64,000 nt of DNA from an uncultured Nitrososphaeria archaeon (GTDB lineage Archaea > Thermoproteota > Nitrososphaeria_A > Caldarchaeales > Wolframiiraptoraceae). Location: positions 740-64,739 of the forward strand of contig CAYVHW010000001.1 of NCBI GenBank assembly GCA_964451435.1. Reading direction: 5' to 3'. The notes beneath the pieces are model-generated. The model was not told where the DNA came from, made no database searches, and worked only from the letters and a program-made list of their open reading frames with translations. Positions 6,212-58,898 of the stretch are shown here, piece after piece; positions within the stretch are counted from its first letter, which is position 1, and every line of letters begins with the position of its first letter. Position numbers and translations under genes: made by a program.

Positions 6212-6374
6212 TCACTCGATCAGATCTTAAGGTGATTATAAACTTTCTCAGATGATTAACCCTTGGCGGGAATGGGAAAGTTTGTCCCGAATCTTTTACA
6301 ATCTTTTGATCCTTCTCAAGATCCTTGACAAAGGCTTAATTATTAGGGGTTTTCACAGGATTTCGGTGTCAAGG

Positions 6375-41807: not shown

Positions 41808-41870
41808 GAATCTCATTAAAGGGCGGGAGGTCGTAAACCCTTATAGAATCGCCCAGCCGAGATTAACCAC

Positions 41871-44533: not shown

Positions 44534-45581
44534 TCATCGACATTATAGCCTTCTGGACGTGGAGCCTATTCTCGGCCTGATCGAATACCACCGAGTGGGG
44601 GCCATCGATCACCTCATCCGTCACCTCATATCCCCTATCGGCTGGGAGGCAGTGCATGTAGATCACATCCCTCTTCGCGACCTCAAGCTTCTCCGAGTCG
44701 CAGATCCAGTCCCTATTCTTCTCGAATAGCTCCTTCATCCCATCGAAGTCGGGCTTCGAGGCCTTCGGAGGAATATAGTTTAGGCTCAGCCAAGACTTTG
44801 GATAAACTACATCAGCGCCCTCGAAGGCCGCCTTCATATCATGGACTATCTCGAATGACCCGCCGAACTCATCAGCATACTTCTTACATTGTTCGATCAC
44901 CTTTGGATCTAGGTCGAATCCCTTTGGGTGAGCTAGGACGACGTCCATCCCAAACTTTGTCGCGACTAAGACGGCGCTTTGGGGGACGGCTAGGGGCTTC
45001 TCGACGCTTGGGGTGTATGCCCAGCTCATCACAAACTTCTTTCCCTCGACCTTCCCCAACTTCTCCTTAATCGTCATTATATCTGCCATGGCTTGGCATG
45101 GATGATACATGTCGCACTCCATGTTTATCACGGGGACATCGGCCCACCTCGCAAACTCTCTAATGATCCTATTCCCTCGGCCATAGATCCACTTAGCATG
45201 CTTCCCATAAATCCTAATGGCTATGCCATCACCATACCTTGAGAGAACCCTCGCGACATCGGCGATCCTCTCAGTCGTGTAAGCTATCTCATCTCCTGGG
45301 AGGGCTGGGGTGTAGATGGCGTCATGTGGGTCCAGAAAGTGGGCGTGGCCTCCGAGCTGCGTCATCCCAGCCTCAAAGCTATTCCTAGTCCTGAGAGATC
45401 TATTATAGAAGATCAGGAATAGAGTCTTCCCCTTGAGATATGGGTGCTCGACCTTCCTAAACTTCCTCTTCAAGTCCATGGCGGCGTCGAGGATTTGGTC
45501 AAGCTCCTCCCTAGTCCACTCAATCGTCGTTATCCAATCCCTACCACGATACATTCCAACATACTTGGGTAGCTCGGACAT
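44523..45581 (-). CDS. transcarbamylase-fold protein, non-canonical (YgeW-like/unknown specificity), paralogue A
   Basis: 352 aa. Carbamoyl-P motifs are present (SLRTR, HPCQ, HCLP), but the OTCase D..SMG motif is replaced by VYPKSW and no ATCase R-x-Q-x-ER is present. It is about 40 aa longer than OTC/ATC. Confidence 0.7.
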   Translation of the reverse strand: MSELPKYVGMYRGRDWITTIEWTREELDQILDAAMDLKRKFRKVEHPYLKGKTLFLIFYNRSLRTRNSFEAGMTQLGGHAHFLDPHDAIYTPALPGDEIAYTTERIADVARVLSRYGDGIAIRIYGKHAKWIYGRGNRIIREFARWADVPVINMECDMYHPCQAMADIMTIKEKLGKVEGKKFVMSWAYTPSVEKPLAVPQSAVLVATKFGMDVVLAHPKGFDLDPKVIEQCKKYADEFGGSFEIVHDMKAAFEGADVVYPKSWLSLNYIPPKASKPDFDGMKELFEKNRDWICDSEKLEVAKRDVIYMHCLPADRGYEVTDEVIDGPHSVVFDQAENRLHVQKAIMSMIMG

Positions 45582-45616
45582 CTAGATCCACCGAGAGAAG
45601 GGTATCGATGAAGGGT

Positions 45617-47002
45617 TTAAGCTTTTCCACCTCCACGAATCGGGGATAATCTCTCTGGACGGCCTCTCTTAACATATTCTCCATATCCCTCGCGTCCAAG
45701 AACCTCTCCATCCCTATAGATTATCTCGCCTCTTAGGATGGTCATGTAGATCCTCCCCCTACACCTATACCCCTCATACGGCGTCCACCCAGATCTTTGA
45801 TGGAGTTCATCAGCCTTAATCATCCACTCACGGTTTAGATCGATCACGGTTAGATCCGCGTCCGAGCCTATCGCTATAACTCCCTTCTTGGGATAGAGCC
45901 CAAACCTCCTCGCGGGATTCTCGGAGAGTAGTCTAGCGAGATCCATGAGCGTGATCCTTCCCTGATTAACCCCCTCACTCAACATGAGTGGAAATAGGGT
46001 CTCGATCCCCGGCAGCCCGCTCCTTATCGGCCAAATATCACTCCATCCAGGCTCTCTATCTTCCTTGAATGTTGAGTAATGGTCTGTCGCAACCATATCT
46101 ATCAACCCACTTCTAAGACCCAGCCATAGAGCCTCCAAGTCCTCTCTCAATCTAAGGGGTGGGGTCATCTTGAGGTATGGGCCAAGCTTCTCAACATCAT
46201 CCCTCGTGAATATCAGGTAATGAGGGCATGTCTCACAGCTTATATTGACTCCACGATATTTCGCCTCCTCAATAAGCTTCAACCCCTCCATCGTCGTCAA
46301 GTGAACTATATGTATCCCGCATCCAGTCGCCCTCGAATAGGCTATAACCCTACCTATCCCCTCAACCTCCGCAAGCCTCGGCCTAGACTCATGGTATGCC
46401 ATCGGATCTCTCCTATCCATAGACTTTAGCCTCTCGGTGTAGAGGTCTACGAGGAATCCATTCTCAGCGTGGAACATGCATAGTCCCCGACCCTTAACCA
46501 TCTCCATAAGCCTCAAAATATCTCGATCGTCTATCATGTATGGCTTGCAGAGGAATAGCTTGAATGAATTGACTCCAAGATCTATCAAAGAGTTTGGATC
46601 GAATCCTTCTAAGCTCTGTATATTTCCCGCATGTAGGCCGAAGTCTATGCGAGACCATCTCTCGCCGGCCTCGATCTTTTCTCTCAAAGCATCGGTGGTG
46701 ATATACGGCGTATCGGTAGGCATCTCGATTATCGTCGTGACCCCTCCAGCGGAGGCCGCCAAGCTTATCGACCTAAAATCCTCTCTCGGCCCAAAGTGTT
46801 TTGGATCATAGGCGTGGACGTGGACATCTATCGCTCCTGGGAGCACGTATCTCCCATTCAGATCTATTTCAATGTCTCCCCTCGGTAGATGATTTATCGA
46901 CGCTATGGAGATAATCTGTCCTCGATCGATCGCAACCCCGGCCTCGAACACACCCTCTCTAAGGACGAGCCTACAGTTCTTCAATACTAGGTCGACGGTC
47001 AA
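45617..47002 (-). CDS. cyclic amidohydrolase (hydantoinase/dihydropyrimidinase/allantoinase family)
   Basis: 461 aa. Metal ligands DVHVH are present, and VNSFKLF is the NSFK carboxylated-Lys motif of DHPase/hydantoinases (absent in type I dihydroorotases). Confidence 0.7.
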   Translation of the reverse strand: MTVDLVLKNCRLVLREGVFEAGVAIDRGQIISIASINHLPRGDIEIDLNGRYVLPGAIDVHVHAYDPKHFGPREDFRSISLAASAGGVTTIIEMPTDTPYITTDALREKIEAGERWSRIDFGLHAGNIQSLEGFDPNSLIDLGVNSFKLFLCKPYMIDDRDILRLMEMVKGRGLCMFHAENGFLVDLYTERLKSMDRRDPMAYHESRPRLAEVEGIGRVIAYSRATGCGIHIVHLTTMEGLKLIEEAKYRGVNISCETCPHYLIFTRDDVEKLGPYLKMTPPLRLREDLEALWLGLRSGLIDMVATDHYSTFKEDREPGWSDIWPIRSGLPGIETLFPLMLSEGVNQGRITLMDLARLLSENPARRFGLYPKKGVIAIGSDADLTVIDLNREWMIKADELHQRSGWTPYEGYRCRGRIYMTILRGEIIYRDGEVLGREGYGEYVKRGRPERLSPIRGGGKA

Positions 47003-47060
47003 CTCAGCTCAACAAGTATCCTCGATCACATGATAAATCTCTTTCCAGAATCTCAGCCCA

Positions 47061-48095
47061 CTACTCATACAGTTTCTTACTCATGGTTAGGGCTAAGACC
47101 GCCATCTTGACGTATAATCCGTTCTCGGCCTGCTCGTAGATCACAGACCTCGGCCCATCCATAACCTCATCAGACGCCTCCTCACCCCTCAAGACTGGTA
47201 GGACGTGGGTGACTATCCCCTTCTTGTCCATTAGGTCGACGAGATCTTGGGTTAGACACCAATCCCTATATCTTCGATGGATCTCAAGCTCCCTCTCAAC
47301 CCCGAACCTAGACGCACCAATGCTCAATAGTTCCCAGCTCGCCCAGCTTCTCGGGAAGACTACATGAGCGCCTTCAATCGCTGGTTTAAGATCACTTGTT
47401 ATCTCAAGGCTTCCACCGCTCCTTTCCGCATTCTCCCTCGCCACCTTGACTATCTCTGGATCTAGGTTGAATCCGGGTGGATGAGCTACGACCACATCCA
47501 TCCCAAACCTCGTCATTATCAATAGCTCGGCCTGAATGCTGCATAGTCCTCTGAGCCTTGAGGCATAAGCCCACATAATCGTATACTTCTTCCCCTCAAT
47601 CTTTCCAAGCCTCTCCCTGACGGTCATAAGGTCTTGGATCGCTTGGGTTGGGTGATAGGTGCAGCATGCCATGTTTATCACAGGCTTCTCGGAGTGTCTC
47701 GCATACTCCATCACCGTCCACCTCCCAAGCCCATACCTGTAGTCTATGGCCTTGTCGAGGCATCGAACCCCTATCCCATCACCATATCTCTCATACATCT
47801 TCGCCACATCCTTCAACCTCTCCCCAAACCCTATCCTAAGCGTCGAGACATCGATATATGACATATGTCCTCCGAGCAAGTTCATCCCAGCCTCGAATGC
47901 TGCTCTAGTTCTGGTCGATGGGGCGTAGAAGATCGCGAAGAAGGTCTTATCCTTTAGAAACTTTGGGATCTTCTCCCCTCTCCTATGCATTTTCTTGAAT
48001 TCCGATGCGAGTCTTATCGCCTCCTCTATCTCCTCAACGCTCCAGTCTTGAGTCGTGATCAAGTCTCTACCATATAGATCCACACCTATCTTCAT
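47061..48095 (-). CDS. transcarbamylase-fold protein, non-canonical (YgeW-like/unknown specificity), paralogue B
   Basis: 344 aa with STRTR, HPTQ, HVLP and VFPRSW in place of the SMG motif. It shares the unusual features of paralogue A. Confidence 0.7.
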   Translation of the reverse strand: MKIGVDLYGRDLITTQDWSVEEIEEAIRLASEFKKMHRRGEKIPKFLKDKTFFAIFYAPSTRTRAAFEAGMNLLGGHMSYIDVSTLRIGFGERLKDVAKMYERYGDGIGVRCLDKAIDYRYGLGRWTVMEYARHSEKPVINMACCTYHPTQAIQDLMTVRERLGKIEGKKYTIMWAYASRLRGLCSIQAELLIMTRFGMDVVVAHPPGFNLDPEIVKVARENAERSGGSLEITSDLKPAIEGAHVVFPRSWASWELLSIGASRFGVERELEIHRRYRDWCLTQDLVDLMDKKGIVTHVLPVLRGEEASDEVMDGPRSVIYEQAENGLYVKMAVLALTMSKKLYE

Positions 48096-48164
48096 GGCGT
48101 TAACAATGTCTGTGTCAATTATTTTAATCTTTTAATAGGTTCTCAGGCGTGAGATTCCTTGTTC

Positions 48165-48177
48165 AAAATTTATATAA
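48165..48177 (+). promoter_or_regulatory. BRE/TATA-like element (CAAAA-TTTATATA) in the 117-nt divergent intergenic region
   Basis: Read directly from the sequence. It lies about 35-45 nt upstream of the TTG start at 48213 and may also serve the divergent transcarbamylase operon via the palindromic TATA. Confidence 0.35.
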
Positions 48178-48212
48178 TTGGTGAAGACATGGTTTAGTCT
48201 TGGGTCTTTGGC

Positions 48213-48701
48213 TTGAGGAGAACTCTCCTAATTGATGCGGAAAAGTGTACTGGTTGTAGACTCTGCGAACTGGTCTGCTCATTTCAACATTACAAGGTCT
48301 TTAATCCAAGGAGGTCTAGGATAACGGTGATAAGGGATGAGGAGAAGGGAGTATTCATTCCGATGACATGCTTTCAATGCGAAGATCCCCCATGCATGAA
48401 GACCTGTCCAACCCACGCGATCTATAGGGATGAGAATGGAGCGATTAGAATAGATTATGAGAAGTGTATAGGCTGTAAACTCTGCATAATGTATTGCCCA
48501 TTCGGCGGAATCTCGATAGATCCCGTCACCATGAAGGTGATAAAATGCGATCTATGCGGGGGAGATCCAGAGTGTGTGAAGTATTGTCCGAAGGGAGCCA
48601 TACAGTATGTTAGGGTGGATGAGGTTGGGGTCAAGAAGAGGATCGAGGGTGCCAAGAAGATTCATGAGAGGATTAAGGTGATCATGGGAGGTGAATCCTA
48701 G
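48213..48701 (+). CDS. 4x[4Fe-4S] polyferredoxin-like small subunit (AOR partner, WOR5/YdhY/AorA-like)
   Basis: 162 aa with four CxxCxxCxxxCP-type motifs (CTGCRLCELVC, CFQCEDPPCMKTCP, CIGCKLCIMYCP, CDLCGGDPECVKYCP). TTG start. Confidence 0.8.
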   Translation: MRRTLLIDAEKCTGCRLCELVCSFQHYKVFNPRRSRITVIRDEEKGVFIPMTCFQCEDPPCMKTCPTHAIYRDENGAIRIDYEKCIGCKLCIMYCPFGGISIDPVTMKVIKCDLCGGDPECVKYCPKGAIQYVRVDEVGVKKRIEGAKKIHERIKVIMGGES

Positions 48702-48703
48702 AG

Positions 48704-50638
48704 ATGTATAAGGGGTATGCGGGGAGAATACTCCGCGTAGACCTAACGTCTAGAAATGTCAAGGTGGAGCCGCTGCCGGATGGATTGGCGTTAAACTATC
48801 TGGGCGGGACGGGATTCGCCGCTAGAATCCTCTGGGATGAAGTGAACGCTGAAACAGATCCACTAAGCCCGGAGAACGTCTTGATAATAGCGACAGGGCC
48901 CGTGAATGGAACGGCCTTCCCACCATCCGGGAGATATATGATGGCCTCAAAGTCTCCCTTGACGGGTATCTGGAGCGAGTCCCACGTCGGAGGCCACCTT
49001 GGACCAGAGCTGAAGTACGCGGGCTACGATATGATACTCGTGAAAGGTAGAAGCTCTGAACCAGTATACCTGATGATCGATGATGATAGGGTTGAGGTTA
49101 GGGATGCCAAGAACATCTGGGGTAAGGATACGAGGGAGACCGTGAAGACCCTATGGGATGAGCTTGGAGATAGATCGTTTAAGATCGCATGTATAGGGCC
49201 TGCCGGCGAAAACATGGTCAAGATCTCCTCGGTTATCTCGGAGATGGGGAGGGCGGCTGCCAGAACAGGTATAGGAGCGGTCTGGGGTAGTAAAAGGCTT
49301 AAGGCCATAGCGGTCAGAGGGTCGAAGGACATCGAGGTGGCTGATCCCGATGGATTCATGCAGCTCGTTAAGGAGTCGATCCGAATGTGCACCGAGGAGT
49401 TCTTCGGGAAGGCGGCTCAAGACACGCTTGGAAAGTATGGGACTCCATGCTTGGTCGAGATGCTCAACTCGATTGGAAGGCTTCCGACAAAGAACCATTG
49501 GACAGGTGTCTTCGATAAGGCCAACCTAATTGGCGGAGAGGCCGTAAGGAGCAGGTATAGGTTTGCTCAAGTGCCATGCTTGGCCTGCGTGATCCAATGC
49601 GGATATATATCATATATTCGAGAGGGAAGATATGCTGGGACGATCACAAAGGGGCCTGAGTATGAGTCGATCTTTGCCCTCGGATCAAATTGTCTTGTCC
49701 CGGATATCGAGGCCATAATCCACATGAACATGCTCTGCAACCTCTATGGGCTCGACACGATCTCGACTGGGAAGACTCTTTCATGGGCGATGGAATGCTA
49801 TGAGCATGGACTCCTGACGAAGGATGATCTAGATGGGATGGAGCTTAGGTGGGGGGATCTAGAGGCCATGATAAAGCTGATAGAGAAGATCGCGAGGAGG
49901 GAGGGGGTTGGAGACATCTTGGCCGAGGGTGCTAAGAGGGCTTCGGAGAAGATTGGGAGGGGAACCGAGAAATACGTGATCCACATCAAGGGGATGGAGG
50001 TCTCAGGCCAAGATCCAAGAGCGCATAAATCCGCAGGCTTATCCCTCGCGATAGCGGTTAGAGGTGCAGATCATCTAAGAGCATTATCTTCAATAGAGGA
50101 GCTTGGATTCACCCAGATAGTCACCGATCGATATGGTGAGGATAAGGTCGAGGCGTTGAGCGATAGGCTTAGCGAGGAGTATAAGGGCTTCTTGATAAAG
50201 GATCTCGAAGACTTATACGCGATAACAGACTCCCTAATCGTGTGCAAGTATGGGACCATGTGGCCTCCAATCTACTACTTCGATCACTTCGCGAAGCTCA
50301 TACCACTCCTAACAGGGATGAAGGAGTACGGTGATGTGAGCTATGTTAGGCTCGTGGCCGAGAGGATATCGAATCTTAGGAGGTGTTTCAACGTGAGGGA
50401 GGGGATAACGAGAAGGGATGAGAACCTGCCCAAGAGATTTACCGAGGAGCCCATGCCCCATGGACCAGCGAAGGGCCATGTCTGCAACCTTGAACCAATG
50501 CTCCGAGAATACTATCAATATAGGAGGTGGGATTATGAGACGGGTCTACCATATAGGGAGACGTTGGAGGAACTCGGCCTGAAGGATGTCGCGGATGAGC
50601 TTGAGGCCATGGGGAGGATTAAGAGGAGGGAGGGCTAA
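48704..50638 (+). CDS. aldehyde:ferredoxin oxidoreductase family tungsto(molybdo)pterin enzyme, paralogue 1
   Basis: 644 aa. The N-terminus (MYKGYAGRILRVDLTS) and the CLACVIQC motif (C-x2-C-x3-C) match the AOR family, with AFOR_N/AFOR_C architecture. Confidence 0.85.
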   Translation: MYKGYAGRILRVDLTSRNVKVEPLPDGLALNYLGGTGFAARILWDEVNAETDPLSPENVLIIATGPVNGTAFPPSGRYMMASKSPLTGIWSESHVGGHLGPELKYAGYDMILVKGRSSEPVYLMIDDDRVEVRDAKNIWGKDTRETVKTLWDELGDRSFKIACIGPAGENMVKISSVISEMGRAAARTGIGAVWGSKRLKAIAVRGSKDIEVADPDGFMQLVKESIRMCTEEFFGKAAQDTLGKYGTPCLVEMLNSIGRLPTKNHWTGVFDKANLIGGEAVRSRYRFAQVPCLACVIQCGYISYIREGRYAGTITKGPEYESIFALGSNCLVPDIEAIIHMNMLCNLYGLDTISTGKTLSWAMECYEHGLLTKDDLDGMELRWGDLEAMIKLIEKIARREGVGDILAEGAKRASEKIGRGTEKYVIHIKGMEVSGQDPRAHKSAGLSLAIAVRGADHLRALSSIEELGFTQIVTDRYGEDKVEALSDRLSEEYKGFLIKDLEDLYAITDSLIVCKYGTMWPPIYYFDHFAKLIPLLTGMKEYGDVSYVRLVAERISNLRRCFNVREGITRRDENLPKRFTEEPMPHGPAKGHVCNLEPMLREYYQYRRWDYETGLPYRETLEELGLKDVADELEAMGRIKRREG

Positions 50639-51799
50639 ATGGTGGACATATCGGTTGAGATCGCCGGAATAAAGCTCAGAAACCCCGTCCTAACGGCGGC
50701 TGGCCCACCATCGAGGGATGCTGAGGCGTTGATCAAGGCGGCTGAGGGCGGTGCAGGTGGATTGGTCGCCAAGACTATAAGCTTGAAGCCCGCCGAAGTC
50801 CCCAGACCATGCCTATCGGTCGTGAATCGAGAATACTCGGTGAGAATCCCGGGATTCAAGACCTATACCACATGTGGGTTTCTGAACGTGGAGCTTTGGT
50901 CGGATATGCCATATCAGAGGTGGGTTGAGCGCGAGTATGCTCTTGTGAAGGAGAAGACGGGATTACCATTGATAGCCAGCATAGGATATACTCCGGAGGA
51001 GGTCTCGAAGCTTGGGAGGCTCGTTGAGAAGGCTGGGGTTGATGGGATAGAGTTCTCAACCCATTACATAGGATTCGATCCAAAGCCAATTAGAGAGGTC
51101 GCTAAAGCCCTTAGAGAATCCGTTGAGATCCCCATCTTCGCCAAGCTCAGCCCACATCTCCCAGACATAACCCCATTCGCAAAGGCGGTCGAGCCATACG
51201 TGGACGGCATAGTCGCGATAAACACCTATGGCCCAACCCTCCACATAGATATAGAGACTGGGAAACCGCTGCTCGGGGGGAAGAATGGATATGGATGGCT
51301 ATCGGGGCCGGCTCTAAAACCAATAGCCGTCAGATATATCGCCGATATAGCTAGAGCGGTTAAGGTTCCAGTCATAGGCGTCGGGGGGATAATGTCTGGA
51401 AAGGATGCAGTCGAGCACATAATGGCGGGAGCATCCGCGGTCGAGATATGTACTGGAGCGATCCTAGAGGGGCCGGGGATCTATGGGAGGGTTGCACATG
51501 AGATCGAGGAGTTCCTAAAGACCCATGGATACGACTCGATCGAGGACATAAAGGGTATGGCCTTGAAATGGCTCCCCGAGAAACCGTTAAGAACCACACC
51601 TCTACCGCCTAAGGTCGATCCAGAGAAATGCACGGGCTGTAGAATATGTGAGAGGGCATGCATCTATGAGGCGGTAGAGATGGTTAAGGATCCGAAGACT
51701 GGGAAGCTGATCGCGAGGACGATCGAGGAGAAATGCTATGGATGCGGGCTCTGCGTGAGTATATGCCCGACGAGGGCGAGATACTTCGAGGAGGAATGA
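50639..51799 (+). CDS. PreA-type dihydropyrimidine dehydrogenase homologue (DHODH/DPD FMN barrel + C-terminal 2x[4Fe-4S] ferredoxin domain)
   Basis: 386 aa with a PyrD-like TIM barrel (GFLNVEL...IGVGGI...). The C-terminus carries CTGCRICERAC...CYGCGLCVSICP. Its ATG overlaps the AOR1 stop (TAAATG). Confidence 0.7.
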   Translation: MVDISVEIAGIKLRNPVLTAAGPPSRDAEALIKAAEGGAGGLVAKTISLKPAEVPRPCLSVVNREYSVRIPGFKTYTTCGFLNVELWSDMPYQRWVEREYALVKEKTGLPLIASIGYTPEEVSKLGRLVEKAGVDGIEFSTHYIGFDPKPIREVAKALRESVEIPIFAKLSPHLPDITPFAKAVEPYVDGIVAINTYGPTLHIDIETGKPLLGGKNGYGWLSGPALKPIAVRYIADIARAVKVPVIGVGGIMSGKDAVEHIMAGASAVEICTGAILEGPGIYGRVAHEIEEFLKTHGYDSIEDIKGMALKWLPEKPLRTTPLPPKVDPEKCTGCRICERACIYEAVEMVKDPKTGKLIARTIEEKCYGCGLCVSICPTRARYFEEE

Positions 51800-51802
51800 G
51801 AT

Positions 51803-52324
51803 TTGAAGCTCCTCATAATAGACTATGATCTATGCTCCGGTTGCAGGGTCTGCGAGCTCATATGCTCCATGGAGCACGCGGGGGTCTTTAAGCCATCGAT
51901 CTCAAGGATAAGGGTCGTGAAGAACGATAAGCTGAGCATAGACGTGCCTCTAGTCTGCATCCAATGCGAGAGCCCGGCATGTGTGAATATCTGTCCAGCC
52001 AAGGCATTGAGCAGGGATGAGGAGACCGGGATAGTGAGGCTGAACCCAGATAAATGCATCGGCTGCAACCTCTGCATATTGAAGTGCCCATATCATGGAG
52101 TCTTCAAGACCCCCGATGGAGTCGTCGTGAAGTGCGATCTATGTGGAGGAGATCCGAGATGCGTCAAATACTGCCCAACCGGAGCCTTACAATATGTTGA
52201 AGAGTCGCCCGAGACTAAGGCCAAGAGGGAGAAATCCAGGGAAAAGCTCCTAAAACTTCTCAAAGAATATGAGTTGGAGAAGCCCGCCTTGAGGATCGCG
52301 AGGGTTGGAGGGAGTGGGGCTTGA
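51803..52324 (+). CDS. 4x[4Fe-4S] polyferredoxin-like small subunit, paralogue 2
   Basis: 173 aa with four Cys motifs collinear with the 48213 protein. TTG start 3 nt after the PreA stop. Confidence 0.8.
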   Translation: MKLLIIDYDLCSGCRVCELICSMEHAGVFKPSISRIRVVKNDKLSIDVPLVCIQCESPACVNICPAKALSRDEETGIVRLNPDKCIGCNLCILKCPYHGVFKTPDGVVVKCDLCGGDPRCVKYCPTGALQYVEESPETKAKREKSREKLLKLLKEYELEKPALRIARVGGSGA

Positions 52325-54234
52325 AGTATAAGGGATATGTCGGCAGATATGCTTTAATCGATCTGACGAGGCAGTCGATCCATATCGAGCCATTAGATGA
52401 GGGGCTTGCGAGAAACTATATCGGTGGAAGCGGTTTCGCCGCCAGAATCCTCTATGACATGCTCAGACCCGGGATAGATCCATTGAGCCCTGAAAATGTG
52501 GTGGTTATCGCGACAGGCCCATTGACCGGAACCCTATGGCCCACCACTGGGAGATATATGATGGCCTCGAAGTCCCCGTTGACTGGGATCTGGGGTGAGA
52601 GCCATGCTGGAGGACACTTCGGCCCAGAGCTCAAGTATGCTGGATTCGATTATCTCGTGATAACTGGTAGGAGTGAGAGGCCGACCTACATCTACATCGA
52701 TAATGGGAGGATCGAGCTTAGGAGGGCTGAACATCTATGGGGGTTAAACGTCCACGAGGCGACGGACGCCATTAAGGAGGAGACCGATCCAAACGCGCAC
52801 GTGGCATGCATAGGTCAGGCGGGAGAAAACCTAGTTAGGTTTGCCTCGGTGATAAGCGACTATCATAGAGCTCATGGGAGGACAGGTGTGGGAGCTGTTT
52901 GGGGCAGTAAGAGACTCAAGGCCATAGCCGTTAGAGGGGATGGGGAGGTTGAGGTCGCGGACCTGGAAAAGTTCATGGAGCTCGTCGAGGATGCTCATGA
53001 AAGGGTTCTAAAGCATCCACAAGCTAGAGACCTCGCAAAGTATGGAACACCGTTGCTGGTTGGGTATAAGCAGTCGATAGGAGAGTTCCCTACAAAGAAC
53101 CATTGGACGGGAGTCTTCGATGGTGCGAAGGAGCTCATGGCCGAGGTGTTGAAGGAGAGGTTTTGGGTGAGGGATAGAGCTTGCTTCTCATGCAGAGTTC
53201 AATGCAAGAAGGTATACACAGTTAAGGAGGGAAGATATGCTGGAATAGTATCCGAGGGGCCTGAATACGAGGGAATATACTCATTTGGATCAAATCTGGG
53301 AAACTCCGACTTCCCATCGATCTTCTACGCAAACTACCTCTGCAACAATTATGGATTAGACGCTATATCGACTGGATGCGTGATCGCCTTCCTAACCGAG
53401 TGCGTTGAGCGTGGGATAGTCGGTAGGGATGAGGTTGATGGCCTCGATCTCAAATGGGGAAATCATGAGGCGTTCATCGAGCTAATCCACAAGATAGCGA
53501 AACGTGAGGGTATAGGAGATCTCTTGGCCGAGGGGGTTAAGAGGGCGTCTGAGAAGATTGGGAGAGGCTCAGAATACTACGCGATCCACGTAAAGGGATT
53601 AGAGGTCTCAGGCCAAGATGGGAGAACCCATAGATCGATAGGATTGAGCCACGCAGTCGCCAGCAGGGGCGCAGACCATCTAAGAGGGCTCGTCACCGTC
53701 GACCAGCTTGGATATGAGGAGATAGCGGCGAAGAGGTGGGGTAGGGATAAGCTCCCAGACATATGCAACCCATATAGTGAGAAGTGGAAGGCCTTAGCGG
53801 TCAAGACGACCGAGGATGTCTACGCGGTGAGGGATCTATTGATAGTATGCTGGTATACGGTCTCATGGCCTCCGATCTACTGGATCGAGGACTTCGCCAA
53901 GATACTTCCAGCCGCGACCGGAGAGGAGGCATTTGGAAGGGTTGAGGAGCTCTTGAAGATAGGCGAGAGGGTCGTGAATCTTGAGAGATGCTTCAACGTT
54001 AGGGAGGGGATAACGAGGAAAGACGACAGGCTTCCGAGGAGATTCATCGAAGAACCCATGCCCGAGGGGCCTGGAAAAGGTCAAACCGTCAATCTCGACT
54101 TAATGCTGGATGAATACTATGATTTGAGGGGATGGGATAGGAAGACCGGGATACCGAGGAAGGAAACCCTTGAGAGGCTTGGGCTTATCGAGGAAATCGA
54201 GGACTTGAGGAGGATGGGAAGGCTTCCAGAGTAG
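52321..54234 (+). CDS. AOR family tungsto(molybdo)pterin oxidoreductase, paralogue 2
   Basis: 637 aa. MKYKGYVGRY..., CFSCRVQC. Closely paralogous to AOR1. TTG start with a 4-nt overlap. Confidence 0.85.
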   Translation: MKYKGYVGRYALIDLTRQSIHIEPLDEGLARNYIGGSGFAARILYDMLRPGIDPLSPENVVVIATGPLTGTLWPTTGRYMMASKSPLTGIWGESHAGGHFGPELKYAGFDYLVITGRSERPTYIYIDNGRIELRRAEHLWGLNVHEATDAIKEETDPNAHVACIGQAGENLVRFASVISDYHRAHGRTGVGAVWGSKRLKAIAVRGDGEVEVADLEKFMELVEDAHERVLKHPQARDLAKYGTPLLVGYKQSIGEFPTKNHWTGVFDGAKELMAEVLKERFWVRDRACFSCRVQCKKVYTVKEGRYAGIVSEGPEYEGIYSFGSNLGNSDFPSIFYANYLCNNYGLDAISTGCVIAFLTECVERGIVGRDEVDGLDLKWGNHEAFIELIHKIAKREGIGDLLAEGVKRASEKIGRGSEYYAIHVKGLEVSGQDGRTHRSIGLSHAVASRGADHLRGLVTVDQLGYEEIAAKRWGRDKLPDICNPYSEKWKALAVKTTEDVYAVRDLLIVCWYTVSWPPIYWIEDFAKILPAATGEEAFGRVEELLKIGERVVNLERCFNVREGITRKDDRLPRRFIEEPMPEGPGKGQTVNLDLMLDEYYDLRGWDRKTGIPRKETLERLGLIEEIEDLRRMGRLPE

Positions 54235-54242
54235 GGTGAGCC

Positions 54243-55586
54243 ATGGCCTCTAAGACCATCTTGATCAAGGGTGGAACCCTGGTCACCATGAATAGGGAGA
54301 GGAGGATAATCAAGGATGGAGCCATATTGGTCGAGGATGGAAGGATAACGTCTATCGGAAAGGCGGATGAGTTTGGGGGAGAGAAGGCTGATAGAGTAAT
54401 AGATGCATCGGGAAAATACATCTTTCCAGGATTCATAAACTGCCACACCCACATGTTCCAAGTCCTCCTAAGAGATGTGGCCATGGACATGGTCCTCCTA
54501 GACTGGCTCAAGACCTCGATCTGGCCGAGTATAAGACATCTGAGGGAGGAAGACATCTACATAGCTGCGAAGCTCGGGATAGTCGAGAACATCAGATCTG
54601 GGGTGACGTGCATAGTCGATAACCAATATCCTAGAAACTATGAGCCGTCGATAAGGGCTATGCACGAGTCTGGGATAAGAGGAGTTCTAGCATGTGGATA
54701 CTATGAGATCAACGTCCCAGAGGATTTGAGGATGGATGCGGATAAAGCCCTAAAGATGTGCGAGGAGATGATCAGGAGATGGCATGGGAGGGATGAGGGG
54801 AGGTTGAGGGTGTGTCCGGCTCCGATGCATCCATGCTTCGCCTCAAAGGAACTCCTACTGAAGTCCAAGGAGCTCGCGGACAAGTATCAGACATATCTAC
54901 ACGTGCATACGGCTGAGAGCGTGAAGGATGTCGAGCTACTTAAGCAGATGACCGGGAAGACCGATGTAGAATACCTCCATGAGCTTGGAATACTCGATGA
55001 GAGATTTCACGCGGTCCACGCGGTTCAGGTATCGCCGGAGGAGATGAGATTATTCGCATCGGCTCACGCGAACATAATCCACAACCCAATCAGCAACGCA
55101 TACACCGGAGCTGGAGTCGCCCCAATTCCAGAATATCTAAGACTTGGATGTAACGTCGCCCTCGGGACGGATGGCCCAGCCAGCGGAGGGAATCACGACT
55201 TCCTCCAATCCATGAAGTTCACGGCCTTAATCCATAAGGGGTTTAAGAGAGATCCAACTGTTATGAAGGTCTCGGAGATATTGGAGATGGCGACCATAAA
55301 CGGGGCCAAGGCTCTTGGAATGGATGGTGAGATAGGATCTCTTGAGGCTGGGAAGAGGGCGGACCTAATAATATTGGATCTCCATAAGCCTCACACCGTA
55401 TACGTCCATGACCCGATCGCAAATCTAGTATATGCTGCGACGAGCGAGAACATCGAGACCGTCATAGTCGATGGCGAGATCTTGATGGAGGATAGGAGGA
55501 TAACCTACATCGATGAGGAGGAGGTCATGGCTGAGGCCTCAAAGGTTGCGGAGAGGTTGATGGAAAAGTTTTCAAGGCGTGGCTAA
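54243..55586 (+). CDS. COG0402 amidohydrolase (SsnA/cytosine-guanine deaminase/MtaD-like), paralogue 1
   Basis: 447 aa with an Amidohydro_1 metal site (INCHTHMFQ ... HVHTAE ... HAVH ... GTDG). Confidence 0.7.
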   Translation: MASKTILIKGGTLVTMNRERRIIKDGAILVEDGRITSIGKADEFGGEKADRVIDASGKYIFPGFINCHTHMFQVLLRDVAMDMVLLDWLKTSIWPSIRHLREEDIYIAAKLGIVENIRSGVTCIVDNQYPRNYEPSIRAMHESGIRGVLACGYYEINVPEDLRMDADKALKMCEEMIRRWHGRDEGRLRVCPAPMHPCFASKELLLKSKELADKYQTYLHVHTAESVKDVELLKQMTGKTDVEYLHELGILDERFHAVHAVQVSPEEMRLFASAHANIIHNPISNAYTGAGVAPIPEYLRLGCNVALGTDGPASGGNHDFLQSMKFTALIHKGFKRDPTVMKVSEILEMATINGAKALGMDGEIGSLEAGKRADLIILDLHKPHTVYVHDPIANLVYAATSENIETVIVDGEILMEDRRITYIDEEEVMAEASKVAERLMEKFSRRG

Positions 55587-55605
55587 GGGAGATTGATCTG
55601 AGATA

Positions 55606-56865
55606 ATGGCGTATGTAACCCATCTAAGATGTTCGAGGTGCGGCTCCGAGTATAGGCTTGAGGATGGGAAGGTTATCTGCGATAGGGATGACCTCGGACG
55701 CCTAGACATCTACTACGACTATGAGGCGATCTCAAGAACCCTGACGAAAGAGACTCTTGAGGAGAGAAGGGGCGGAGTCTGGAGATACTTTGAACTATTA
55801 CCGGTGTCTAGGAGGTCTTCTATCGTGAGCCTCGGCGAGGGTGGGACGCCGATGATAAGATCCGAACGCCTCTCCAAGCATCTCGGCTTAAAGAACCTAT
55901 ACCTGAAGGATGAGACGAGGAATCCAACAGCCTCCTTCAAGGATAGATCTATGACCGTTGGGGTATCGAAGGCGGTGGAGCTTGGGGTTAAGAAGACCTG
56001 CACAGCTTCGAGTGGAAATGCGGCCGCAGCCCTCGCAGCATACTCGGCTAAGGCCGGGCTAGAGTGCTATGCATTCGTCTTAGAGGAGGCGTCGATCGGG
56101 AAGATCTCCCAGCTCCAACTCTATGGTGCGAAGGTGTTTAGAGTTAGGAGGGTTGAGGAGGAGGTCGATCCAACGGTCCAGCTACTCAGACTCGTAGTCA
56201 AGAATTATGGCTGGTATCCATGCCCAAGCTTCGGGCCATTCAATCCATATCAGGTTGAGGGGCCTAAGACAATATCATATGAGATCGTTGAGCAGCTTGG
56301 CTGGAGGATTCCAGACTGGATACTCATCCCAACGGGCTCTGCGTGTCTCCTAGCCGGGATCTGGAAGGGGCTTAAAGACTACTATGAATTTGGCTGGATA
56401 GATCATCTTCCAAGATTGGCGGCGATCCAGTCTACTGGAAACGCGCCGTTCGTGAGGGCGTTTAAGGAGAGGATGGATCCGATGAATATAGAGCCTTGGA
56501 GGAATCCGAGGACGGTCGCGAGCGGGTTGATGGACCCATATCCATGGGATGGAGACGCTGGCCTAATCGCCTTGAAGGAGACTGATGGTGTGGCCGAGGC
56601 CGTTCCAGACAATCTAATCCTAGAAGCTCAGAAGCTCTTAGCGTCGATGGAGGGCGTGTTTGCTGAGCCATCTGGAGCGGCTGGCTTAGCCGGGGCCATG
56701 AAGCTCTTAGAGGATGGGGTCATAGATCCGAGTGATGAGGTCGTGGTCCTCGTGACCGGCAGCGGCTTAAAGGATCCAGATATAGTTAAGAGTATGTTCG
56801 CGGAGCCTCCGACGATAGGTCCAAGCCTTGAGGAGTTTACGAGGATGCTGAGTCGATTGGGCTGA
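55606..56865 (+). CDS. threonine synthase-fold PLP enzyme (ThrC family; function in this context uncertain)
   Basis: 419 aa. The N-terminus has Cys pairs (CSRCGSEY...VICDRDD) as seen in short-form ThrC. The PLP-Lys motif is ASFKDRSM, within a fold-type II PALP domain. Confidence 0.65.
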   Translation: MAYVTHLRCSRCGSEYRLEDGKVICDRDDLGRLDIYYDYEAISRTLTKETLEERRGGVWRYFELLPVSRRSSIVSLGEGGTPMIRSERLSKHLGLKNLYLKDETRNPTASFKDRSMTVGVSKAVELGVKKTCTASSGNAAAALAAYSAKAGLECYAFVLEEASIGKISQLQLYGAKVFRVRRVEEEVDPTVQLLRLVVKNYGWYPCPSFGPFNPYQVEGPKTISYEIVEQLGWRIPDWILIPTGSACLLAGIWKGLKDYYEFGWIDHLPRLAAIQSTGNAPFVRAFKERMDPMNIEPWRNPRTVASGLMDPYPWDGDAGLIALKETDGVAEAVPDNLILEAQKLLASMEGVFAEPSGAAGLAGAMKLLEDGVIDPSDEVVVLVTGSGLKDPDIVKSMFAEPPTIGPSLEEFTRMLSRLG

Positions 56866-56867
56866 AC

Positions 56868-58232
56868 TCATCTTATCCTATCTAGCTCGGGCTTAACCTC
56901 CTTCAACCTATCCCAGAGCCTCTCCGCAGACCTCTGAGCGATCCTCTCAACTTCATCCTCATCTACGGTTAAGACCTTTCTATCCCTCATCAAGATCCTC
57001 CCATCAACTATAACCGTCTGGACATCATCTCCATCAACCGTGTTCACCAGATGCCCATAAACGGTCTCGGCGTTGAGCGGGGTTGGCAGAACATCGGGTT
57101 TTATGATGATTATATCCGCGAGCTTCCCAACCTCAAGTGAGCCAACCTCCCCGTCAACGCCATAGAGTTCGGCGCCCTTGATGGTCGCCATCTCCAAAAC
57201 CTGTAGCGGCGTCATCATCCTCGGATCTCGATAATGGACCTTGTGGAGTAGGTAGGCTGCACGTATATTCTCGAATCCATCGAAGATGTATCCATCGTTT
57301 CCCAGCCCGACCCTGATCCCCATATCGATCATCTTGGGGATGGCCGCGACCCCAACCGCATTCAACATGTTGCTCATCGGGTTATGCGCGACATTCGTCC
57401 CAGTCTCGGCCAAGATCTTCAACTCATCATCGTTTAGATGAACGCAGTGAGCCAAGACCACATCCCTCCCAAGAAATCCCACATCTCTAAGCCTCTCAAC
57501 CGTCCGCTTCCCATATCTCTCCAAGTTATGATAGACGTCGACCAAGCCCTCAGACGTATGCATGGTTATCGGGACCTTCAGCTCATTAGCCTTCTCCCTG
57601 ACGAGCTTGAGGAGGTCGTCGGATACGGTGAAGCTTGCGTGTAAGCATAGCATCCCTCTGACCCTCCCCTTATCCCCAACTTTCTCAATGTATCTGATGC
57701 ACTCCTTAATCCCCCTCTCGCCCTCCTCCCTACTATGCCTCTCCGTGGCCTCGAATGAGATGAAACCTCTAATCCTGATCCTCTCAACCGCTTCACCGAT
57801 CCTATCCAAGACGCCCTCAATGGAGTTTGGGCCGGAGTAGGTGTCGGCGAATAGGGTCGTCCCAGTCTTCAAGAACTCTAGGCATCCTACCAAGGCGCTC
57901 GCGTATGCGTCGTCGTGGGTTAACGCCTCATCGACAGGCCACCAAATCCATTGGAGGTTTTGCATGAAGTCTGTTGGAGGCTTGATCTTGGCGAAAAGTG
58001 GAGCCCCTCTAAGGAGCATTCCGTAGAGATGGGTGTGGGAGCAGATCAATCCGGGCATCACTATGCATCCTTTAGCATCTATCTCCTCATCCGCCCTCAC
58101 TCCCGAGAACTCGGACATCTTCCCGATCTTGCTTATCTTTCGATCCTCGACCAATATCCCCCCATCCTCGATTATCCTCCGCTCCCGATCCATCGTGACG
58201 AGCAAACCATTCTTGATTAGGATACTACCCAC
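56868..58232 (-). CDS. COG0402 amidohydrolase (SsnA-like), paralogue 2
   Basis: Metal site LICSHTHLYGMLLRG. The N-terminus (ILIKNGLLVTMDRERRIIEDGGILVED) is collinear with paralogue 1. The GTG at 58232 is preferred over the ORF-track start at 58283. Confidence 0.7.
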   Translation of the reverse strand: MGSILIKNGLLVTMDRERRIIEDGGILVEDRKISKIGKMSEFSGVRADEEIDAKGCIVMPGLICSHTHLYGMLLRGAPLFAKIKPPTDFMQNLQWIWWPVDEALTHDDAYASALVGCLEFLKTGTTLFADTYSGPNSIEGVLDRIGEAVERIRIRGFISFEATERHSREEGERGIKECIRYIEKVGDKGRVRGMLCLHASFTVSDDLLKLVREKANELKVPITMHTSEGLVDVYHNLERYGKRTVERLRDVGFLGRDVVLAHCVHLNDDELKILAETGTNVAHNPMSNMLNAVGVAAIPKMIDMGIRVGLGNDGYIFDGFENIRAAYLLHKVHYRDPRMMTPLQVLEMATIKGAELYGVDGEVGSLEVGKLADIIIIKPDVLPTPLNAETVYGHLVNTVDGDDVQTVIVDGRILMRDRKVLTVDEDEVERIAQRSAERLWDRLKEVKPELDRIR

Positions 58233-58340
58233 ATTAAGCACCTCAATAACCAAAATGATCTTGATGATAGATAAGTGATTCATCTTAACATGGAAAAATC
58301 TTAAATCGGAGATAGGTCGAGATCATGAGGGTGTCGTCGA

Positions 58341-58811
58341 ATGCCATACATCTACGCCGATCCATCGAGGTGCACTGGATGCGAGATATGCGTCTTAACA
58401 TGTTCATTCACATACTTCAAGGTCCTAAATCCGAAAAAGGCTAGGTTGAGGGTCGTGAGGATGGAGCCCGCAATAGATCTAGTGATCGCTTGCAGGAATT
58501 GTGAGAAGGCGCCGTGTATGGAGGCGTGTCCAAACGAAGCCATCAAAAGAACATCTAAGGGGATAATCGTGATAGATGAAGGGAGATGCGATGGATGTGG
58601 AAGATGCATCGAGGCATGTCCCTTAGACGCCATCCACATACCCCCCAATGGGAGAGCCCCGATAAAGTGCGTGGCCTGCGGAGCATGTGTTCAAGCATGC
58701 CCCGTGGGATGTCTCAAGATAGCTTATAGCTTTGAGGAGGCGTTTGAGAAGCGAAGGAACTATGCTGAGAGACTTAAGGAAATAGTCTTGAACTTGAGGA
58801 GTGGTGGATAG
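58341..58811 (+). CDS. 4x[4Fe-4S] polyferredoxin-like small subunit, paralogue 3
   Basis: 156 aa. MPYIYADPSRCTGCEICVLTC..., four Cys clusters. Confidence 0.8.
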   Translation: MPYIYADPSRCTGCEICVLTCSFTYFKVLNPKKARLRVVRMEPAIDLVIACRNCEKAPCMEACPNEAIKRTSKGIIVIDEGRCDGCGRCIEACPLDAIHIPPNGRAPIKCVACGACVQACPVGCLKIAYSFEEAFEKRRNYAERLKEIVLNLRSGG

Positions 58812-58898
58812 CTAGGATCCATTAGCTCGGTCAAAATCTTCGATTCAAGTTGGAGATTGGATAGATTTTATATGGGGCGATTCACCGACTTATTCGGC

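Follow-up and report, generated by a model that had tools for sequence, protein, structure and literature searches.

Why would an archaeon encode a flavin- and iron-sulfur-dependent reductase between two aldehyde oxidoreductases (AORs), each with its own polyferredoxin? The question is raised by seven plus-strand genes at positions 48213 to 56865 of a 64,000-nucleotide stretch of DNA, hereafter the window, from an uncultured Nitrososphaeria archaeon (contig CAYVHW010000001.1). An earlier note on this locus saw in it a pyrimidine-ring reductase homolog plausibly driven by generic aldehyde oxidation of the malonate-semialdehyde type, and remarked in passing that a heterocycle might itself be a substrate of the AORs. 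Our analyses suggest another answer. The genes very probably form an archaeal variant of the anaerobic reductive uric acid, or 2,8-dioxopurine, pathway. With much less assurance, we lean toward a fuller reading in which this is a 2,8-dioxopurine-type cluster whose AOR modules replace XdhD/DOPDH and perform purine-ring (de)hydroxylation via ferredoxin.

The open reading frame (ORF) list of the window shows that the block is filled by Fd1 (48213 to 48701, 162 residues), a WorS/AorA-type polyferredoxin with four [4Fe-4S] clusters; AOR1 (48704 to 50638, 644 residues), an AOR-family pyranopterin large subunit (WorL) with AFOR_N and AFOR_C domains; the reductase (50639 to 51799, 386 residues); Fd2 (51803 to 52324, 173 residues), a WorS-type polyferredoxin with Fer4-family domains; AOR2 (52321 to 54234, 637 residues), a second AFOR_N plus AFOR_C large subunit whose start overlaps the Fd2 stop by 4 nt; a deaminase-like amidohydrolase of the TRZ/ATZ type (54243 to 55586, 447 residues, Amidohydro_1); and a ThrC-family pyridoxal phosphate (PLP) enzyme (55606 to 56865, 419 residues, PALP domain and ThrC models). 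The junctions measure 2, 0 (TAAATG), 3, −4, 8, and 19 nt from 5′ to 3′. These coordinates and gaps agree with those of the earlier note, and inspection of the junctions and independent gene calls, which returned identical coordinates for the same DNA on four metagenome contigs, confirmed them. The domain identities given there (polyferredoxin, AOR, PreA-like, amidohydrolase, and ThrC fold) were likewise borne out by Pfam and NCBIfam scans, on which all domain identities reported here rest; "cutoff" below means the NCBIfam model cutoff, in bits.

By sequence inspection, every internal start is preceded by a purine-rich Shine-Dalgarno-like motif of the GGAGG type, and an A/T-rich TATA-like box (tttatata, 48169 to 48176) lies 37 nt upstream of the Fd1 start, in the 117-nt intergenic region (48096 to 48212) that separates the block from a divergent operon. 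The best promoter-like match of the region is a predicted site at 48149 to 48178. Scans for sigma-70 promoters and terminators returned this upstream A/T box only, with no excess over shuffled sequences, and the terminator scan found no terminator-like site or hairpin inside the block. The block is also the longest run of same-strand gaps of at most 20 nt in the window, the runner-up comprising four genes. As 22 of the 42 same-strand gaps in the window are that short, spacing alone is weak evidence of a unit, and the synteny conserved across phyla is stronger: the order Fd-AOR-UacX-Fd-AOR is kept in many related loci. Tight junctions, Shine-Dalgarno-like motifs, the absence of an internal terminator-like site, and this conserved order together make cotranscription and translational coupling plausible, as the earlier note had supposed. 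We thus consider the seven genes a predicted operon and the core of a catabolic cluster of approximately 16 kb (44523 to 60812).

The pathway to which we compare this cluster was described by Li et al. and Liu et al. (2025) in Escherichia coli, Clostridioides difficile, and Clostridium sporogenes. Its components are XdhD/DOPDH, YgfK or UacX, SsnA, HyuA, YgeW (with YqeA) or UacY, YgeY, and YgeX. XdhD/DOPDH dehydroxylates urate at C6 to 2,8-dioxopurine (isoxanthine), which is then dearomatized by YgfK or, in C. difficile, by UacX, a PF01180 protein that has no FAD/NAD(P)H domain and probably draws on ferredoxin. The two rings are opened by SsnA and HyuA, YgeW (with YqeA) or UacY, together with YgeY, takes off the two ureido groups, and YgeX converts 2,3-diaminopropionate to pyruvate. 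There is no aldehyde intermediate in the published pathway.

The reductase between the two AORs carries a DHO_dh domain and a Fer4 dicluster, as expected of an enzyme with FMN and two [4Fe-4S] clusters, and is the protein that had been taken for PreA-like. It scored 213.7 against the PreA model, whose cutoff is 335, and missed the PyrD cutoff as well. Its closest solved relative is pig dihydropyrimidine dehydrogenase (DPD; domains IV and V). Alignment shows that the DPD loop NLSCPH, which holds the catalytic Cys671, is replaced by EFSTHY, and that Asn668 of DPD is also replaced. The motif E-[FL]-S-T-H-Y is invariant throughout the UacX-like family. With the cutoffs missed and the catalytic loop of DPD not conserved, we ruled out a PreA or PyrD identity, and the protein is not a pyrimidine (PreA) reductase: it groups with UacX-type proteins. 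It is 46 to 48% identical to those encoded in Peptostreptococcaceae and Sarcina loci, with which it shares the EL/FSTHY and GYGWLSG motifs. All four of these bacterial loci carry a hydantoinase-like gene and a xanthine dehydrogenase (XDH), and three (L059, L068, and L069) an M20 peptidase. The SsnA proteins of the two tested, L059 and L068, are bona fide (599 to 687 bits; cutoff, 444), as is the D-hydantoinase of the Peptostreptococcaceae locus L059 (556 versus 393). Given this identity and the motifs shared with homologs from bacterial uricolytic clusters, the protein is best called UacX-like, a member of the ferredoxin-type UacX family, the comparison being with UacX-type homologs rather than with C. 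difficile UacX itself. Its closest genome match, at 79% identity, is in a Guaymas Basin Bathyarchaeota metagenome-assembled genome (MAG).

Like PreT-PreA/DPD and the clostridial ferredoxin-type PydA, the UacX-like protein combines an FMN-containing DHO_dh TIM barrel with two C-terminal [4Fe-4S] clusters. It differs from PreT-PreA/DPD in its PreA score, its EFSTHY loop, its lack of PreT, and its SsnA and purine-pathway neighbors. Domain scans of the window ORFs revealed no PreT/GltD-like partner. The earlier note was right on this point, although the absence is no anomaly, being a known trait of the ferredoxin-type UacX/PydAc class. We propose that the UacX-like protein is a ferredoxin- or polyferredoxin-dependent 2,8-dioxopurine reductase.

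The genes that identify the pathway lie outside the seven-gene block, so that the operon of the earlier note holds but the functional unit is larger. It includes the divergent minus-strand operon (44523 to 48095), a convergent minus-strand gene for an SsnA-like amidohydrolase (56868 to 58283), and a third polyferredoxin-AOR pair on the plus strand (58341 to 60812). The divergent operon begins with OTC_b (47061 to 48095), recognized by domain scan as one of two carbamoyltransferases with the ornithine carbamoyltransferase (OTCase) fold, and continues with a HyuA-like cyclic amidohydrolase of the hydantoinase/allantoinase/dihydropyrimidinase type (45617 to 47002, Amidohydro_1) and OTC_a (44523 to 45581, OTCace_N and OTCace). 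SsnA models are the top NCBIfam matches of the SsnA-like protein (PRK07203, 395.6 versus a cutoff of 444; TIGR03314, 368.9 versus 455.5), and in Hadarchaea and Desulfurococcales its orthologs (47 to 69% identity) are immediate neighbors of UacX. The HyuA-like protein scored 350 for allantoinase, 340 for ErtD, and 325 for D-hydantoinase (cutoff, 393), all below cutoff, and matches dihydropyrimidinase about as well as allantoinase.

To describe the company of UacX more widely, we used 80 GTDB loci obtained with a profile of the UacX-like family, in which genes were counted within 10 kb of the UacX homolog, and a second set of 80 metagenome loci, for 160 in all. In the GTDB set, an SsnA-family gene is found near UacX in 47 of the 80 loci, an AOR in 33, a hydantoinase-like gene in 29, a polyferredoxin in 25, a ThiS/MoaD-like gene in 18 (AOR loci only), an OTCase-like gene in 16, a ThrC-like gene in 12, an XDH-family gene in 11, a carbamate kinase in 10, and an M20 peptidase in 7.

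The two carbamoyltransferases are 42.5% identical to each other. OTC_a has N-acetylornithine carbamoyltransferase as its top NCBIfam match (322 bits; cutoff, 288), and neither protein is a YgeW equivalog (188 for OTC_a and 156 for OTC_b; cutoff, 453). OTC_b is conserved in related clusters at 55 to 70% identity. The OTC_a/OTC_b pair adjoins SsnA-UacX in 12 GTDB loci, none of which has an M20 peptidase. Among the 80 GTDB loci, M20 is absent from every one with two such genes and present in all three complete loci that have just one. Two carbamoyltransferases without M20 would fit a pathway variant that relies on phosphorolysis to remove both ureido groups. Searches by tblastn found no carbamate kinase, M20, M24, PfkB, or ThiS/MoaD-like gene in the 64-kb window; related archaeal loci do carry carbamate kinase.

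The last two genes of the operon have no exact counterpart in the bacterial pathway. The TRZ/ATZ-type protein scored 411 for 5′-deoxyadenosine deaminase (cutoff, 522), 298 for 8-oxoguanine deaminase, and 170 to 172 for guanine deaminase; its PDB matches are atrazine chlorohydrolase, methylthioadenosine/S-adenosylhomocysteine deaminase, and 8-oxoguanine deaminase, and homologs at 33 to 39% identity are found repeatedly in AOR-type clusters. The ThrC-like protein scored above the cutoffs of threonine synthase models (NF006050, 367.7 versus 303; TIGR00260, 208.4 versus 167.1), and its nearest PDB entries are threonine synthases, with Aquifex ThrC (2zsj) at the top. It is the only PALP protein of the window, and the model for 2,3-diaminopropionate ammonia-lyase (YgeX) is not among its NCBIfam matches. 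Orthologs at 58 to 64% identity adjoin UacX in Desulfurococcales and Bathyarchaeia clusters, and ThrC-like proteins also occur in the WOR-3 and Melioribacteraceae clusters of bacteria (L074 and L082). Because of these associations the ThrC-like enzyme likely fills the place of YgeX; membership in the ThrC family does not settle the reaction. The ThrC-like and SsnA-like genes converge with their ends 2 nt apart (56863 to 56870), which leaves no room for a terminator of either transcript.

Genes were assigned to steps by homology and synteny. In the resulting scheme, purine bases would be converted to 2,8-dioxopurine by ring hydroxylation and 6-dehydroxylation, and the UacX-like FMN/Fe-S enzyme would reduce and thereby dearomatize 2,8-dioxopurine with low-potential electrons and no NAD(P)H subunit. 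The SsnA-like enzyme would then open the pyrimidine ring, and the hydantoinase-like enzyme the imidazolone ring, to yield 2,3-diureidopropionate. OTC_a and OTC_b would phosphorolyse its two ureido groups to carbamoyl phosphate, from which ATP might be made by a carbamate kinase encoded elsewhere, and the ThrC-like PLP enzyme would turn 2,3-diaminopropionate into pyruvate and ammonia. The TRZ/ATZ-type amidohydrolase probably deaminates an aminopurine at the entry of the pathway; alternatively, it could be a second ring hydrolase. The cluster would thus follow the enzyme logic of the bacterial uric acid pathway with mostly homologous parts: a UacX-type reductase, SsnA-like and hydantoinase-like hydrolases, OTCase-fold carbamoyltransferase(s), a fold-type-II PLP enzyme, and the colocalization of reductase and SsnA. 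It differs in having three polyferredoxin-AOR modules of the tungsten type instead of an XDH-family enzyme, two carbamoyltransferases but neither an M20 peptidase (YgeY) nor, in the window, a carbamate kinase, a ThrC-family enzyme for YgeX, an additional TRZ/ATZ-type amidohydrolase, and an archaeal host.

Part of this evidence could also be accommodated by ferredoxin-dependent, Pyd-type breakdown of uracil or thymine, with reduction of uracil, opening of dihydrouracil, cleavage of N-carbamoyl-beta-alanine, and AORs acting on malonate or methylmalonate semialdehyde. Such a route would explain why DPD is the closest solved relative of the flavoenzyme and why the cyclic amidohydrolase scores alike for dihydropyrimidinase and allantoinase; a ferredoxin-type PydA does exist in clostridia, genes related to uridine phosphorylases and to thiouracil desulfidases are present elsewhere in the window, and an aldehyde intermediate would provide the AORs with a conventional job. 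We nevertheless regard pyrimidine breakdown as very improbable. The PreA cutoff is missed and both the catalytic Cys and Asn668 of DPD are replaced, and the UacX family colocalizes with SsnA, a uricolytic marker, and in bacteria with XDH. Two carbamoyltransferases and two ring hydrolases fit a purine product with two ureido groups, not a pyrimidine product with one. Moreover, domain scans detected no semialdehyde-making aminotransferase in the cluster, and three AORs would be left unexplained.

The three polyferredoxin-AOR modules occupy the place of the XDH-family enzymes of the bacterial pathway. Fd1 and Fd2, which are 51.5% identical, have 16 Cys residues each in four CxxCxxC...C motifs, and Fd3 (58341 to 58811), a WorS-type polyferredoxin with Fer4-family domains, has 17 Cys and four cluster motifs. 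The best PDB matches of Fd1 and Fd2 are 9mqx_E (6e-40 for Fd1), 8c0z_C (2e-39 for Fd1), and 6x6u_B (the WOR5 entry), all of them small Fe-S subunits solved alongside AOR-family large subunits. The polyferredoxins also match the N-terminal domain of E. coli AegA/YgfT, annotated as "formate-dependent uric acid utilization proteins." No twin-arginine motif was seen on inspection of their N termini, and domain scans of neighboring ORFs found no FAD-subunit or WorABC-type domain. AOR1 and AOR2 are 54% identical, and AOR3 (58857 to 60812) again consists of AFOR_N and AFOR_C. The best PDB match of AOR1 is the Pyrococcus furiosus AOR (PfAOR; 1aor, 7.7e-141, approximately 43% identity). The large subunits also match 9mqx_D and 8c0z_A and are far nearer to PfAOR than to FOR, WOR5, or BamB (474 bits for PfAOR versus 247 for BamB). 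Under the 2026 classification of tungsten oxidoreductases (WORs), the sequences place the polyferredoxin-AOR pairs in Class II (WorL plus WorS).

In PfAOR numbering, AOR1 retains Thr243, Glu313, His448, and the four cluster Cys residues and has Gln in place of Tyr427; three of the four residues of the aldehyde-oxidizer active-site set (Thr243, Glu313, Tyr427, and His448) are thus kept in AOR1 to AOR3. Gln427 is present in all three proteins and in 42 of 43 cluster-associated homologs. We considered it as a unique active-site change and dropped it as strong evidence, the position being variable across the family: among the 150 nearest 50%-cluster representatives it is Tyr in 47, His in 36, and Gln in 10. 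AOR1, AOR2, and AOR3 represent three orthologous groups, each found across several phyla, that jointly form one clade with the signature Gln427, N93H, N253I, G434S, and F496Y. Members of the AOR2 group come from Bathyarchaeia, Kor-like Thermoproteota, and Heimdall. In AOR3, the first [4Fe-4S] ligand (Cys288 of PfAOR) is replaced by Asp, which is conserved in all 11 orthologs of its group that were examined (e.g., L043:15542-17404). AOR1 lies directly upstream of UacX, at most 100 nt away, in at least 12 of the 33 AOR-bearing GTDB loci; Thorarchaeota-type clusters have the order HyuA-like, Fd3, AOR3; and in L099 a single codirectional block reads Fd1-AOR1-UacX-Fd-ThiS-AOR2-Fd3-AOR3-SsnA.

Some variation in gene content accompanies these modules. 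In most AOR-type clusters, a ThiS/MoaD-like gene directly follows UacX or lies between the polyferredoxin and AOR2 (L011:11198-11491 and 17 others). The window has no such gene by tblastn, and Fd2 and AOR2 overlap there instead. Thorarchaeota-type loci (L043, L056, L079, and others) carry, between AOR1 and UacX, an M24 metallopeptidase of the creatinase/Xaa-Pro fold, a PfkB-family kinase, and often a PAS histidine kinase, all absent from the window.

The distribution of AORs and XDH-family enzymes beside UacX would fit a common function. Thirty-three GTDB loci have an AOR only, 11 an XDH only, and 36 neither; the metagenome set comprises 34, 4, and 42 such loci, respectively. Over all 160, this amounts to 67 loci with AOR, 15 with XDH, 78 with neither, and none with both. 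The nominal Fisher P value for AOR/XDH exclusivity is approximately 0.002 to 0.005. As the two states are phylogenetically clumped, the P value overstates independence, and we down-weighted exclusivity as a statistical proof. In the window itself, six-frame tblastn found no XDH homolog, and no Ald_Xan_dh_C or MoCoBD domain occurs among the scanned ORFs.

A cluster represented by L114 and L116 illustrates the exchange. It is close to that of the window (UacX, 60% identity; SsnA, 69%; OTC_b, 70%; ThrC-like, 63%) and nests amid AOR-type clusters in the UacX tree. A complete three-subunit XDH adjoins its UacX gene (L116:11259-16289; a molybdenum cofactor subunit of 773 residues, a 2Fe-2S subunit of 156, and an FAD subunit of 304), no AOR is present, and only a 98-residue polyferredoxin remnant is left. 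This ORF (20155 to 20451 of L116) looks like the relic of a lost WorS-WorL module. The cluster also encodes a phosphoribosyltransferase and a carbamate kinase. An AOR that served only as an electron donor would be required in XDH-type clusters too. The lack of any UacX locus with both enzymes, together with the XDH of this sister cluster, is what a shared function, rather than a donor role, would predict.

The three polyferredoxin-AOR pairs would therewith most likely carry out ferredoxin-linked purine hydroxylation and dehydroxylation in place of Mo/Se XDH-family enzymes, and what was only a side remark in the earlier note, the action of the AORs on a heterocycle, is the reading that our evidence favors, within the fuller reading to which we gave a modest preference above. 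AOR1, whose translation is probably coupled to that of UacX, would be the leading candidate for the 6-dehydroxylase, the enzyme that would supply UacX with its substrate. Dehydroxylation at C6 takes a lactam carbon, at the acid level, to an aldimine-level C-H and formally equals the reduction of an acid to an aldehyde by an AOR; in the abstract of PMC9295118, AORs are described as the only enzymes known to reduce nonactivated acids. We consider the chemistry reasonable; members of the xanthine oxidase family, likewise, accept aldehydes as well as purines. Electrons would be carried by the four-cluster polyferredoxins between the oxidative and the reductive steps of the AORs, UacX, and the ferredoxin pool. 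We speculate that hydroxylation at C2 and C8 would free four electrons and that C6 dehydroxylation plus the UacX reduction would use four, so that a route from hypoxanthine would be balanced. A broader and more tentative proposal, in which our confidence falls short of even, is that the Gln427-clade AORs (AOR1 to AOR3 with their polyferredoxins) are purine hydroxylases/dehydroxylases that replace Mo/Se XDH in Asgard, Bathyarchaeia, and related archaea. With UacX they might form an electron-wired assembly: hydroxylation of hypoxanthine or xanthine at C2 and C8 would release electrons that the polyferredoxins hand on to 6-dehydroxylation and ring dearomatization, and hypoxanthine would thereby be turned into dihydro-2,8-dioxopurine in internal redox balance.

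The AORs might instead be conventional aldehyde:ferredoxin oxidoreductases, or use H2 or another simple donor, and load the polyferredoxins that reduce UacX, with a purine (de)hydroxylase encoded elsewhere or 2,8-dioxopurine being imported. PfAOR is after all their closest solved relative, with Thr243, Glu313, and His448 conserved, and an AOR can take H2 as a donor, again according to the abstract of PMC9295118. The resemblance of the polyferredoxins to 9mqx_E and 8c0z_C brings to mind the published AorAB/WorSL nanowires, which feed a terminal "plug" subunit; the probable translational coupling of AOR1 and UacX, the match to the N-terminal domain of AegA/YgfT, and the 78 of 160 UacX loci without a linked hydroxylase would be in keeping with a donor role as well. 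We consider such a role unlikely. Reduced ferredoxin is a common currency of such anaerobes, and a dedicated donor seems unneeded; three AOR paralog groups, each with its own polyferredoxin, are conserved across phyla; and AOR never occurs with XDH, which one sister cluster has in its stead. The published pathway offers no aldehyde, and AOR1 orthologs are linked to an ABC importer. With no aldehyde in the published pathway and with AOR and XDH mutually exclusive beside UacX, the main proposal of the earlier note, in which generic aldehyde oxidation drives a PreA-like enzyme, finds no support.

The importer-linked AOR1 orthologs, at 56 to 57% identity, are found in Zestosphaera and Sulfolobales MAGs, where they are not beside UacX. 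Their operon comprises an NMT1/THI5-like binding protein, an ABC ATPase, a permease, a 133-residue polyferredoxin, and an ORF of 79 to 80 residues without a Pfam match (L085:7031-12170 and L087:7045-12170). Linkage to an NMT1-type ABC importer would point to a small molecule taken up from outside, and not to an endogenous aldehyde, as the AOR substrate. As this importer family is named for the NMT1/THI5 thiamine-pyrimidine proteins, it would also be compatible with a different N-heterocycle or a hydantoin-type substrate, such as a modified base, processed by the same enzyme logic with the AORs at another step. So would the scores of the archaeal components, all below the bacterial equivalog cutoffs, and the TRZ/ATZ-type and ThrC-like enzymes, which are foreign to the bacterial pathway. 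Such a substrate appears improbable to us. The steps correspond one to one to those of the 2,8-dioxopurine pathway, and the UacX family continues into bona fide uricolytic clusters of bacteria, so that a purine is the simplest substrate to assume.

Several considerations weigh against purine (de)hydroxylation by the AORs and, in part, against the purine pathway as a whole. The roles proposed for the AOR1 to AOR3 clade derive from sequence and synteny. Approximately 43% identity to PfAOR, together with the retention of Thr243, Glu313, and His448, makes aldehyde oxidoreductase the default expectation from homology, and since position 427 varies, Gln427 identifies the clade but does not demonstrate new chemistry. 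The 78 loci with neither enzyme nearby indicate that the hydroxylase need not be linked to UacX, and the AOR1 orthologs of Zestosphaera and Sulfolobales break a strict AOR1-UacX linkage. The absence of XDH pertains to the 64-kb window and to the neighborhoods of UacX loci rather than to whole genomes. In the UacX tree, AOR-type clusters fall essentially into a single block, and as few as three changes between the AOR and XDH states explain the data. The xanthine oxidase family also includes aldehyde oxidoreductases, so that the swap could in principle be one between two aldehyde oxidizers. Finally, the SsnA-like, hydantoinase-like, and OTC_b proteins all fall below NCBIfam equivalog cutoffs, tblastn found no carbamate kinase in the window, and the ThrC-like protein, which passes threonine synthase models, could simply be ThrC.

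Comparison with characterized enzymes shows where the purine reading would depart from precedent. As in the Class II enzymes P. furiosus WOR5/ASOR and Caldicellulosiruptor bescii GOR, a large subunit with AFOR_N and AFOR_C is preceded immediately by the gene for a small subunit with four [4Fe-4S] clusters. Compared with the WorSL/AorAB nanowires of Classes III and IV (Aromatoleum aromaticum AorABC and Acetomicrobium mobile WOR1), a UacX-type reductase is the neighbor here, in place of WorN/AorC (the FAD subunit) or WorABC (the bifurcating plug). A UacX-type partner is not among the five published tungsten oxidoreductase classes. AOR1 to AOR3 further differ from published WORs in having Gln at the position of Tyr427 together with the four other signature residues, and in their purine-type catabolic context.

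With XdhD-YgfM/DOPDH (XdhAC) and gut-bacterial XDH, the AOR modules would have in common their genomic position relative to UacX/SsnA and the proposed type of reaction. The two families are unrelated in sequence and fold, and a bis-pyranopterin W/Mo cofactor contrasts with a mono-pterin Mo=S(Se) center. Electrons would travel through four [4Fe-4S] clusters in the AOR modules, versus two [2Fe-2S] clusters and FAD in the XDH family. To our knowledge, purine activity has been reported for no AOR-family enzyme, and BamB, of class II benzoyl-CoA reductase, is the only member of the family known to act on a nonaldehyde substrate. BamB provides a precedent for the reduction of an aromatic ring by an AOR fold with a polyferredoxin partner; AOR1 to AOR3 are much more distant from it than from PfAOR, and the bifurcation subunits BamDEFGHI are absent here. 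Neither of the two 2025 pathway papers mentions archaea, tungsten, or ferredoxin-type hydroxylases, and the 2026 WOR classification contains no purine link and no UacX-type partner subunit. Literature searches, including full-text searches, on AOR or tungsten enzymes with purine, isoxanthine, or SsnA in archaea returned no description of this variant.

Other genes of the window touch on the cluster more loosely. The plus strand encodes two MoeA paralogs at 38596 to 41807; a PBP-like domain of the oxyanion-binding type is fused to the second. Both paralogs probably serve metal insertion or maturation of the AOR pterin cofactor, the association being one of proximity, approximately 6 kb upstream, and they are the only genes nearby that bear on its metal, W or Mo. 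The pair is followed by a TudS-related putative desulfidase of the "CD3072 family" (38596 to 42416 for the three genes). Between 21980 and 28107, a uridine-phosphorylase-family gene (TIGR01718, 308.7; cutoff, 280.3) precedes a nucleoside-type ABC importer made up of a double ABC ATPase, a Bmp/PnrA-like binding protein, and two permeases; this importer could feed free bases to the catabolic cluster 20 kb away. Inspection by eye of the regions upstream of Fd1 (48096 to 48212) and Fd3 (58284 to 58340) found no convincing shared operator.

Elsewhere, the window carries archaeal traits: a DTD2-type deacylase, a Cbf5-type pseudouridine synthase, and a geranylgeranyl reductase. We took the host to be probably one of the Bathyarchaeia, from hydrothermal sediment. 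On the minus strand at 3183 to 5050, a gene for a phosphoribosyltransferase of the quinolinate phosphoribosyltransferase type and an isochorismatase-family (nicotinamidase-like) gene share 4 nt and probably make up a pair for NAD salvage. Two very large ORFs with overlapping stops (6252 to 11098; 769 and 846 residues) contain BNR/Asp-box repeats and part of an SBP_bac_5 domain. A PPC-domain protein comes next, and an oligopeptide-type ABC transporter adjoins them; the two ORFs may encode surface or secreted proteins.

If the purine reading is correct, the 2,8-dioxopurine pathway, so far known from bacteria only, would extend to Asgard archaea, Bathyarchaeia, Hadarchaea, and Desulfurococcales, and sediment archaea would gain pyruvate, ammonia, and ATP from the purines of detrital nucleic acids. 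A variant that relies on two carbamoyltransferases and no hydrolase would raise the ATP yield per purine. Only 5 of the 92 tungsten-oxidoreductase clades in the 2026 classification have a known physiological role, and the cluster supplies a testable substrate hypothesis for one of them, purine hydroxylation/dehydroxylation. This would be the first N-heterocycle function in the AOR family, and UacX would represent a new type of terminal "plug" for WorSL nanowires. The replacement of a Mo/Se hydroxylase by a W-pterin enzyme would be a nonorthologous displacement between the two great families of pterin enzymes, one that would bear on the availability of Mo, W, and Se in hot anoxic settings.

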